Assembly: GCA_045577175.1 (NCBI GenBank) | Contig: JAZNHT010000023.1 | Location: 38,407 to 102,406 of the forward strand | Length of the DNA stretch: 64,000 bases | Direction: 5' to 3' | Source of the DNA: Eubacteriales bacterium | GTDB taxonomy: Bacteria; Bacillota; Clostridia; Oscillospirales; CAG-272 | Part shown: positions 18,801 through 20,214 of the stretch, one piece after another | How positions within the stretch are numbered: the stretch's first letter is position 1 | Layout of the letters: the number at the start of each line of letters is the position of its first letter | Made by a program: the position numbers and the translations under genes | Notes under the pieces: model-generated | Database searches by the model: none | What the model saw: the letters and a program-made list of their open reading frames with translations, nothing else | What the model was told of the DNA's origin: nothing

Positions 18801-20214
18801 ATCCTACCGCCGCTACCCGATCGCGGTTGCTGTTTCGTATGACAACATGAAAACGTTTGAAGGCATCCAGGATATGTTCCTCAAAACGGCATACCAGGGC
18901 ATGCTGACGGGAACCCGCTTCGATGGCACGAACCCGACTGCATCGCAGGTTGGTGACAGCCTGATTCTGTCCTTCACCGGTGACGGACACTTCTCGTTCC
19001 GCATTGACAATTTCAGAGAGTATCTGTACCGCACGAAGGGTGCATACGATTCCTTTGAAAATGCGACACCCGAATTTGAGGGATGGTCATTCACGGGCGG
19101 TATGATCGAAAACTCGACCGATCACGCATCCGTTGGCGAGAAATCCATGAAATTCAGCGTGGGTGCATCGGCGGTGCGCTCCCTGCCCTCCGTTTCCGAG
19201 GGTGTGATCTCCTTTGATTTGTGGATCGATGATCCTGCCAAGGCGGATCTTGAAATTGAGCTGGAGACCTCCTTTGCCGCAGACTACGGTGTGGCAGCAC
19301 CCGTTGCCTTCTGTCTCAACGGTCAAAAGCTCACCCTCCTCGGCTCCGACAAGGCGATCGACGCAAACCTGAAGGCAGGCTGGAACACGTTTGTCTTTGA
19401 TCTCTCGCTGAAAAACAGCACGCAGAGTGTGACGCTCAGCGTAAACGGTGCCGCCCCGGTCAATGCACCGATCAATAACAGCGAGATAAACAATTACGTC
19501 TGCTTCGTAAGCGTGAACTGCAATGGCGGAGAAACGTATTATCTGGACAACTTCCTCGTGATCGATGAGGATACTGTCATCTACACAGCCAAGCAGACGA
19601 AGGCAGAGATTGCCGATTTGACCGAGGTGCCGGAAGCACTTGCCGAGCGCTACGAGACGGCGGATGAAATTAAATCGTACCTGTCCGGCAGAATGACTGC
19701 CGCATACGGGGACGCTTACACGGCGGAAAACAGCCTGTTTATGGATCTCTCCCTGTTTGTATCCACCGACGGCGAAAATTTCAGAAGTGCCGTTCTGAAC
19801 GACATCCCGATGGAGGGTATTGAGATCCGTCTCGATTATCCCGAAGGAACGACCGCCTACACCCATGAGTTCAAGGCGATCCATATGTTCACTGCGGACT
19901 CCAACCGTCACAGCACGTACATCGGCAAGTATGAATCCCCGCTCGTGACAGAGCGCGAGGACGGTCTGTACATCAAGCTCCGCAGTATCGATTCACTCCT
20001 TCTGCTTTCGTGGGAGAAGGTAGCGGAGACTCCCGTGGACACAGAGCCTGAGACGGAGACGGATACCGCCCCTGTCACCGATCCTCAGCTGACAGATGAC
20101 ACGGCAGGCGGCTCCTCCCCGATTCTCTATATCGGCATCACTGCGGGTGTGATCGCAGTCGCTGCGGTCATCGCCGTAATCCTCGCGAAGAAATCCAAAA
20201 AGAAATCCGCGTAA
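15820..20214 (+). CDS. Giant secreted surface protein, paralog 5
   Basis: GAGGA lies 7 nt before ATG 15820. Signal peptide MASIFRKILAFSLVCVMLFGMIPAFPTKA. Asp boxes SHDEGRTW, SDDLGKSW, SKDGGKTW, SYDNGLTW. ASYDGEDGPGVDFV; TKGAYDSFE. Ends SSPILYIGITAGVIAVAAVIAVILAKKSKKKSA. Confidence 0.9.
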   Translation: MASIFRKILAFSLVCVMLFGMIPAFPTKAESSAASENAVSNVIRASYAADEIKLNGNPNEASWNLHLTLAENARVGAQWDYQTLYIGVKNPEKKEITVSVNGTVLSSANAQIKNSSNKKNTEYSVSLQTIGITANDYGVEIPVIMQIGTEMWEGTILLTSTSWVTLPKASRGFDSLAITDINRAPTSAQGVKEDDGLFFYDRYNKNGNNPRGIRTVASYTDTKEFGAALTDMSRTTVIEFDFHADKMPVYELGVTDNTFYSYIPNAGFAAWVTGKTESDNKPLMVSFGIINTEAGLVFVVHDDVKDYTYVLDKQVGDTFRIGLAWTPDGDLAFSLDGTTVAVYESVSFKPVWWELAEGTLTLNCIRALKAAESDADTIEFDITNLKVGKSNGDSVIDQITFEKIAGKNTSANAVTTDLSLSGITINDPYLDTVYPVVFESSDPSVIAADGKVMRPAENGKTVSLTAKIEALGVTKTIDVYVQGENPSASTLVTQNDVVTYKMKGIPYDAPTFTLDTTNNSVIRDLGEVKKVNVVVLKDSDDITRLHEGMLTIWVSDDNKAYQQTDSFKLLRDGQYTYLYDFEATGRYVKVHCTTHDTTDPDFTAPLDGMIEAYYDEVFGDGGNSFASTTTATVTNTTANTLYDTVYVLSASDAGVSCVTADKSDVRFFLGEELLYHWYDGTDFYVRVTEVPANSMVPITILSGNANAKNISDKEHIYEVSYGTTETFNRMYGHWYMLLPNGTLFNFSGIAVNDKPFTYQVSHDEGRTWSAGIIADGSDDFLCIPYGDYYDEVAGRILVQGTRTMENGKLSTRVMYSDDLGKSWHKSEMILPEEAQYFQNYVDFTKCASYDGEDGPGVDFVFPAAIADDYYKTTAGMDYPAAQVIVIYSKDGGKTWEVSESRIHYTSGMGLQVRESGVCEAGIICGDDGSLALYARCQFESVNHFAVSYSYDNGLTWTEEMVLSNVYATNTQALMYDFEGSKLLIWGGHNALGSASYRRYPIAVAVSYDNMKTFEGIQDMFLKTAYQGMLTGTRFDGTNPTASQVGDSLILSFTGDGHFSFRIDNFREYLYRTKGAYDSFENATPEFEGWSFTGGMIENSTDHASVGEKSMKFSVGASAVRSLPSVSEGVISFDLWIDDPAKADLEIELETSFAADYGVAAPVAFCLNGQKLTLLGSDKAIDANLKAGWNTFVFDLSLKNSTQSVTLSVNGAAPVNAPINNSEINNYVCFVSVNCNGGETYYLDNFLVIDEDTVIYTAKQTKAEIADLTEVPEALAERYETADEIKSYLSGRMTAAYGDAYTAENSLFMDLSLFVSTDGENFRSAVLNDIPMEGIEIRLDYPEGTTAYTHEFKAIHMFTADSNRHSTYIGKYESPLVTEREDGLYIKLRSIDSLLLLSWEKVAETPVDTEPETETDTAPVTDPQLTDDTAGGSSPILYIGITAGVIAVAAVIAVILAKKSKKKSA

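Follow-up and report, generated by a model that had tools for sequence, protein, structure and literature searches.

Probable C-terminal membrane anchors in five tandem sialidase-like paralogs of an uncultured Clostridia bacterium

Two described groups of bacterial surface proteins come closest to the C-terminal tails considered here, which end five tandem sialidase-like paralogs (A to E) encoded on contig JAZNHT010000023.1 of an Eubacteriales bacterium, within a stretch of 64,000 nucleotides that was analyzed as a whole and is referred to below as the window. The first is the 'C-anchored' class of LocateP, whose members have a cleaved signal peptide, a C-terminal helix with a positive tail, two helices spaced by more than 45 residues and no LPxTG (PMC2375117). 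The second is the 'hydrophobic tail' class of Listeria, which comprises ActA and about ten predicted proteins and in which positive residues act as stop-transfer signals (PMC4010754). In true sorting domains, conservation peaks in the signature motif, which otherwise unrelated proteins have in common; an enzyme-dependent signal of this kind is expected on proteins of one genome that are homologous in their C-terminal region alone, and to be present or absent together with a dedicated enzyme (PMC3237569).

Each of the five paralogs is read here, with a probability of roughly 80%, as a type I, single-pass, Sec-exported surface protein that is anchored at its C-terminus, the helix acting as a stop-transfer anchor. 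This reading is carried by the observed two-hydrophobic-segment topology, the charge distribution, the absence of a sortase motif and the conservation pattern, and the tail most likely belongs to a class, and follows a common design, already known among Gram-positive bacteria. Similar to ActA and other C-anchored proteins, the paralogs have an N-terminal signal peptide (putatively cleaved here), a large extracellular part, one C-terminal transmembrane (TM) helix and a positively charged cytoplasmic end, and they lack LPxTG; in the ActA class, anchoring takes place by stop-transfer during Sec export, and the same is proposed for the paralogs. Three of the LocateP criteria are seen in these proteins, and signal-peptide cleavage is predicted from sequence only. 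They differ from ActA in that their ectodomains are unrelated to it, the KSKKKSA end is unusually well kept, the acidic Pro/Thr stalk varies in length and the proteins are known from sequence alone.

Anatomy and topology of the C-terminal module

All five tails share one build, in which an acidic, Pro- and Thr-containing linker is followed by a single hydrophobic helix of 21-24 residues, a Lys/Arg cluster and a terminal Ala. The five C-termini quoted in a previous sequence-only reading of this DNA were reproduced exactly by translation, and the helix of about 20 residues, the Lys/Arg cluster and the terminal Ala that it described are present in every copy. Its five DNA ranges also cover the right DNA and end on stop codons, but four of the five (103, 92, 104 and 93 nt) were counted as not being multiples of three, the 5' ends lying slightly out of frame. 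The linker is 13-35 residues long and rich in D/E/T/P/S/G; the D/T/P/E-rich spacer previously ascribed to each copy is indeed long in A, C and E (27-35 residues), but comprises only 13-14 residues in B and D. The modules occupy the following positions in the window:

1826-1999, + strand: module of paralog A; linker 1826-1906, TM helix 1907-1972 (PIVWIGIGAVVIAGAAVCLAIV), KKASKKSA 1973-1996, stop codon 1997-1999.
6474-6611, + strand: module of paralog B; short linker 6474-6512, TM helix 6513-6584 (NLLVHIAASAAIVIAVAALGTVIV), KKSKKRRA 6585-6608, then the stop codon.
11007-11183, + strand: module of paralog C; linker 11007-11087, TM helix 11088-11156 (SMLVIGIGAAVVAAASILTAIII), KKSKKKSA 11157-11180, then the stop codon.
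15517-15642, + strand: module of paralog D; short linker 15517-15558, TM helix 15559-15621 (PIYWIGASVIAIAMVTTVVIV), RKRRKA 15622-15639, then the stop codon.
20014-20118, + strand: linker of paralog E, 35 residues (EKVAETPVDTEPETETDTAPVTDPQLTDDTAGGSS), a putative acidic, Thr- and Pro-rich stalk.
20119-20187, + strand: TM helix of paralog E (PILYIGITAGVIAVAAVIAVILA), Kyte-Doolittle maximum 2.76.
20188-20211, + strand: predicted basic cytoplasmic tail of paralog E, KKSKKKSA, with the stop codon extending to 20214.

No other open reading frame (ORF) in the window ends in this way, and the tail is limited there to the five paralogs. The Kyte-Doolittle maxima of the C-terminal segments over 19 residues lie between 2.2 and 2.76; the basic end comprises 6-8 residues ending in Ala, and the last 9 residues together carry a net charge of +4 to +6. 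For the C-terminal 220 residues of E, AlphaFold2 gave a folded domain (predicted local distance difference test, pLDDT, 70-90), an unstructured linker (pLDDT below 50 over model residues 163-189) and a single helix (model residues 190-215), which begins at Pro and runs to the Lys cluster.

A domain of ~140 residues (YPEGT...HEFK.IHMF...EDGLYV...LAW) precedes the linker in B-E and is absent from A, which keeps the tail module; the stretches compared were 1337-1999 of A and 5949-6608, 10521-11180, 14980-15639 and 19552-20211 of B, C, D and E, respectively. This domain has no Pfam match and was modelled by AlphaFold2 as a mixed strand-and-helix fold (pLDDT 70-90). A search with the last 220 residues of E returned fragments of the same family only, and the domain seems to be confined to this sialidase-like family. 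In the homolog P0008 (2,347 residues), the N-terminal lectin-like modules are duplicated and a helix-less C-terminal extension of ~380 residues replaces the TM tail, so that this protein is a putative natural anchor-less variant of the family. As A keeps the tail without the ~140-residue domain and P0008 lacks the tail, the module behaves as a separate unit of the protein.

At the other end, the four full-length paralogs start with signal-peptide-like segments, each made of a basic n-region, a hydrophobic h-region and a small-x-small c-region (STA/VE, ARA/AE, TAA/DT and TKA/ES, all predicted sites):

2250-2333, + strand: signal peptide of paralog B (MSTILKRVLSLALTLIMLFGMMPVISTA); end approximate, cleavage site placed by eye.
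6759-6851, + strand: signal peptide of paralog C (MNVQKKILSFMLAVIMLFGMISPLGVRTARA); end approximate, cleavage site placed by eye.
11320-11406, + strand: signal peptide of paralog D (MIVKMKKILSLFLASLILFGLIPPIETAA); end approximate, cleavage site placed by eye.
15820-15906, + strand: signal peptide of paralog E (MASIFRKILAFSLVCVMLFGMIPAFPTKA); end approximate.

In each full-length protein, strong hydrophobicity is confined to a single segment at the N-terminus and a single one at the C-terminus. In the Kyte-Doolittle scan (19-residue window, threshold 1.6), these two segments alone were found in B, C and D, the signal peptide of B with its n-, h- and c-regions being the sole strongly hydrophobic segment of that protein besides the C-terminal one, and E adds a marginal peak of 1.67 at residues 282-300. 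The two hydrophobic helices are ~1,380-1,410 residues apart, compared to the more than 45 demanded by LocateP. The strict tail-anchored class, whose members lack a signal peptide, keep their N-terminal domain in the cytosol and have the C-terminal helix inserted after translation, was ruled out, since all four full-length paralogs carry the N-terminal segment. The simple tail anchor considered in the sequence-only reading is therefore upheld as a plain anchor, but not as a term: the putative signal peptide makes these proteins type I 'C-anchored' or 'hydrophobic tail' proteins.

In the proposed mechanism, the N-terminal signal peptide would send the ectodomain of ~1,400 residues through SecYEG and would be removed by signal peptidase I. 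The final hydrophobic segment would then act in the translocon as a stop-transfer sequence and shift sideways into the bilayer, and the Lys/Arg cluster (KKSKKKSA and its variants) would be held in the cytoplasm by the positive-inside rule, fixing the orientation. Because the positive charge lies past the helix, the large domain would be placed outside the cell. The acidic, Pro/Thr-rich disordered linker may serve as a stalk that keeps the enzyme off the membrane, within or beyond the cell wall, and, at the outer end of the helix, the Ser/Thr-Pro, Trp/Tyr and small Gly/Ala residues probably represent ordinary helix-cap and interface features rather than a recognition motif. We infer that the proteins are exported by Sec, lose the signal peptide and keep their C-terminus intact when mature.

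Conservation and comparison with sorting signals

A short (S/T)PI.(W/Y)IG edge at the outer end of the helix, previously described for the five tails, is present in A, D and E, but B has NLLVHIA and C has SMLVIGIG at this place. Among 11 family members, mean pairwise identity is 26% in the linker (the most variable part of the family), 34% in the edge, 36% in the helix core, 48% in the rest of the protein and 71% in the last 8 residues, a window that ranks 91st among 1,307 eight-residue windows. When B-E were compared with their orthologs in the metagenome-assembled genome (MAG) GCA_017466375.1, the ectodomains were 78-89% identical, the linkers 67-88%, the edge plus helix 32-61% and the basic tails 50-88%. 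The edge and the helix evolve faster than the ectodomain and retain just their hydrophobic character, the edge is under no special constraint, and conservation lies on the cytoplasmic, Lys-rich side, away from the place where a sorting enzyme would recognize and cut.

The likeness among the five tails is inherited rather than due to chance, because the five genes are paralogs (overall pairwise identity 42-54%), which also means that the tails are not independent observations. Gene conversion was rejected as its main cause, since the helix DNA differs widely at both synonymous and non-synonymous sites; near-identity is limited to the final 27 nt of C and E (25/27).

A cleaved C-terminal sorting signal was also suggested by the sequence-only reading; if it were of an undescribed class, a sortase-, exosortase- or rhombosortase-like enzyme encoded elsewhere in the genome would read a G-G/S-S-P-x-x-(W/Y)-I-G edge and hand the ectodomain over to the wall or a lipid. 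The layout does fit the tripartite architecture of LPXTG, PEP-CTERM and GlyGly-CTERM signals and recurs on unrelated proteins, and the Gly-rich AGGSS, DGGVS and EGGSA found just before the helix resemble the 'often SGGS' motif of the GlyGly class (PMC3237569). However, B (NGSNLLVH), C (GEMSSMLV) and D (ASVTPIYW) either lack the motif or have another sequence in its place, 'GG' occurs in 7 of 17 family tails, and the edge changes faster than the ectodomain both between orthologs and family-wide. Similarly, GlyGly-CTERM/rhombosortase (TIGR03501) shares the tripartite layout and, in some copies, GGSS or GGVS right before the helix, but its model gave no match at E-values up to 10, the motif is not conserved among the paralogs, no rhomboid gene is present in the window, and that system is essentially proteobacterial and rare outside Proteobacteria (PMC3237569).

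None of the genes in the window contains a sortase, exosortase/archaeosortase, rhomboid (PF01694) or CPBP Pfam domain, as already noted for processing enzymes in the sequence-only reading, and none of these families is represented among the called genes of four syntenic loci (L001-L004). With no CTERM model at cutoff on the five tails, an edge less conserved than the ectodomain and no candidate enzyme within the 64 kb or the syntenic loci, the cleaved sorting signal is unsupported and appears very unlikely.

The catalogued classes were compared at the level of motifs and of hidden Markov models (HMMs). No LPXTG-like, NPXTG, LAXTG, xVxTG, PEP or PGF motif was found within the last 70 residues of 17 family tails, the sortase motifs being scanned as the regular expressions [LIVFSPNAQ]PxT[GASN], LAxTG, NPxTG/NPQTN and xVxTG, and the earlier statement that LPXTG is lacking extends to all of them. 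No model of NCBIfam (release 20) reached its cutoff on the whole proteins or on the isolated five tails, which gives a negative answer to the proposed check against catalogued CTERM classes. The nearest catalogued entity is NF041738 (GG_III-CTERM, 'GGIII-like transmembrane region', cutoff 22 bits), which scores best of all models on the helix and the Lys part; hydrophobic and Lys columns predominate among its 28 positions, and the five window tails stay under its cutoff (no match for A, 9.6 bits for B, 13.8 for C, 14.1 for D and 12.2 for E). Family members outside the window scored 25.0 (P0007, above the cutoff), 19.8 (P0006), 18.7 (P0004) and 10.3 (P0001), and a literature search on 'GGIII' found nothing relevant. 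Among the other models, TIGR02595 (PEP-CTERM) was absent from the match lists, TIGR04145 (Firmicu-CTERM) gave none on the window tails and at most 16.2 on family homologs against a cutoff of 50, and GPS-CTERM reached at most 12.9 on family homologs against 28. Sub-threshold matches of the composition type were obtained on the window tails with Heimdall-CTERM (16 vs 24) and Loki-CTERM (13.6 vs 19.9).

The LPXTG sortase A signal (TIGR01167, LPXTG_anchor, cutoff 15.9) resembles these tails in having a spacer, a hydrophobic helix and a basic cluster at the extreme C-terminus, and in its Gram-positive host. It differs in that the paralogs have no LPXTG or variant pentapeptide, their tails score below the cutoff (13.0-14.0 bits on C and D, no match on A, B and E), and there is no sortase gene nearby, either in the window or in the syntenic loci. 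It could be imagined that the tails are degenerate relics of such a signal, which lost the pentapeptide and now serve as membrane anchors only; this is a claim on evolutionary origin and is compatible with a plain anchor as the present function. In line with such descent, TIGR01167 comes near its cutoff on the helix and Lys part (13-14 bits on window tails and 16.3 on P0007), xxTG sequences (DNTG, SDTG, DTTG) stand just upstream of the helix in C and its relatives, and a profile of the family tails also retrieved a genuine sortase-type signal (P0066, see below). The P-x-T-G motif, however, is kept in none of the 17 family tails, and TIGR01167 also passes an unrelated LPXTG-less tail (20.0 bits), so that the likeness is one of composition rather than descent, and a sortase relic is very unlikely.

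As TIGR01167 exceeds its own cutoff on two LPXTG-less tails (the unrelated one and P0007), a near-cutoff score is not specific, and the alignments of both TIGR01167 and NF041738 to the window tails cover only the helix and the Lys part. Any Ala/Val/Ile helix with lysines behind it brings these two models close to their cutoffs, and automatic 'LPXTG anchor' calls can therefore be false; in addition, the tripartite look alone is no evidence of a sorting system. A further observation, made with TIGR01167, NF041738 and TIGR03927, is that short anchor HMMs reach or exceed their curated cutoffs on tails without the defining motif, and the C-terminus of the EssA model matches as well.

The anchor might also double as a regulated shedding site. 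The outer half of the helix, rich in Gly, Ala and Ser (IGIGAAV, IAASAA, IGITAG), would then be cut by a rhomboid- or site-2-type intramembrane protease, or by a juxtamembrane one, and the enzyme would be freed into the medium. In every helix, small helix-destabilizing residues are concentrated in the outer third, as is known for rhomboid substrates, and the existence of the anchor-less P0008 indicates that a soluble form is apparently tolerated. On the other hand, Gly/Ala-rich helices are common among bacterial single-pass anchors, no protease gene among those of the window is linked to the array, and no sequence feature separates shedding from a static anchor, which leaves regulated release quite improbable.

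Distribution of the tail outside the family

The exact KSKKKSA end and the generic layout behave differently outside the family. When one genome each of 185,579 species was searched for the DNA pattern of KSKKKSA followed by a stop codon, 58 loci were found, only 2 of which have a preceding hydrophobic helix (one family member and one small membrane ORF); the other 56 are chance matches, so that the exact end is a family trait. The sequence-only reading had linked a motif confined to one family with a plain tail anchor: the exact end is so confined, whereas the generic layout also occurs in unrelated proteins. When 1.84 billion representative proteins were searched with a profile built from 11 family tails, 40 matches were obtained (E-value ≤0.001), which, apart from family members, include ~30 unrelated proteins of ~100-650 residues, mostly with N-terminal signal peptides, diverse ectodomains, Ser/Thr/Pro/acidic linkers and oligo-Lys at the extreme C-terminus. 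One of the matches, P0066, ends in a genuine sortase-type signal (...SPKTGDTSNLALWIGILV...KNKKK) with SPKTGD right upstream of the helix, which means that the profile also picks up the helix and Lys part of true sortase substrates. NF041738 matched all 24 generic tails tested (best E-value 1.7e-5). A word-indexed search with the tail alignment returned short fragments only, missed known family members and was uninformative.

It is conceivable that the generic tail, in which an acidic stalk is followed by Gly-Gly/Ser-(S/N)-Pro, an aromatic residue, I-G-I-G, the helix and oligo-Lys, represents in these paralogs and in the at least ~30 unrelated secreted proteins an undescribed sorting or shedding signal of anaerobic Firmicutes, which would overlap NF041738 and be served by a dedicated enzyme encoded away from its substrates. 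This proposal seems highly improbable. A sorting-signal function, if true, would imply a new sorting enzyme in Firmicutes, and nothing found favors it.

Several observations nevertheless weigh against a plain C-terminal anchor. NCBIfam lists the near relative NF041738 as '-CTERM', and the family member P0007 passes it, a point that also counts for a sorting signal. The unrelated tails often repeat an acidic-Gly-Gly-(S/N)-P-x-(L/W)-(W/Y/F)-(I/V)-G-I-G edge, which could hint at recognition; this evidence is partly circular, because the search profile itself contained that edge. In addition, KSKKKSA is near-identical across proteins that are 40-45% identical, which is more than the positive-inside rule alone needs. 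The unusually constant KSKKKSA end and the recurring Gly-Gly/Ser-Pro/aromatic start of the helix remain minor points beside the plain-anchor verdict, and none of the three rival explanations (sorting signal, shedding site and LPXTG relic) has positive support beyond resemblance.

The paralog array and its genomic setting

The first 20.2 kb of the window are occupied by the five genes, which lie head-to-tail on the + strand, each followed by a GC-rich hairpin (12-15 bp) and a T-run ~4-12 nt past the stop codon:

2-1999, + strand: gene of paralog A, its 5' part cut by the window edge; hairpin and T-run at 2011-2040.
2250-6611, + strand: gene of paralog B; hairpin and T-run at 6619-6650.
6759-11183, + strand: gene of paralog C; hairpin and T-run at 11187-11218.
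11320-15642, + strand: gene of paralog D; hairpin and T-run at 15648-15675.
15820-20214, + strand: gene of paralog E, starting at the ATG at 15820 rather than the TTG at 15751 (the ortholog P0001 begins MASIFQK); hairpin and T-run at 20223-20256.

The complete paralogs B-E comprise 1,440-1,474 residues (~1,450). Pfam identified an atrophied Ig domain, F5/8-type-C (galactose-binding-like) modules, DUF2341 and a BNR_2/BNR sialidase-like propeller in the paralogs, and, among solved structures, they resemble only clostridial exo-alpha-sialidases, and these weakly. With a strong hairpin and T-run just past each stop codon, every paralog gene forms a separate transcription unit. The hairpins after A, C and D have ATCGGTCGGC...GCCGACCGAT in common, which indicates that the terminator was within the duplicated unit. 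Promoter-like extended -10 sites (TGnTATAAT) were also observed upstream of several paralogs (6684-6712 and 15743-15771).

The nearest homologs are found in MAGs of uncultured 'Clostridia bacterium' from animal guts, such as RGIG4156 (GCA_017466375.1, roe-deer colon), with the same gene neighborhood, and the synteny of the array is kept in related gut Clostridia MAGs (L001-L004). The parent contig of 115,376 bp carries at least two more paralogs (P0004 and P0006), giving at least seven in all. Among 5.8 billion proteins, a total of 8 homolog clusters were found, which points to an expanded family that is rare and restricted to its lineage.

Beyond the array, the window encodes sporulation and housekeeping functions as is usual in Clostridia, among them YqfD, PhoH, YbeY, Era, RecO, MutS2, ArgS and LexA. 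The 3' end of the array is adjoined by an ORF on the - strand (20261-20884) that encodes a soluble protein of 207 residues and has the same position in L001-L003; it was rejected as a candidate processing enzyme, since it has no hydrophobic segment and no Pfam match. In the last 2 kb of the window (62001-64000), the G+C content is 0.47, compared to 0.51-0.57 elsewhere.

With regard to annotation, a C-terminal anchor would make these large BNR/sialidase-like proteins membrane-anchored, surface-displayed enzymes or lectins, and neither sortase substrates nor freely secreted proteins. Such an anchored status would bear on glycan-foraging models of this uncultured gut Clostridia lineage.

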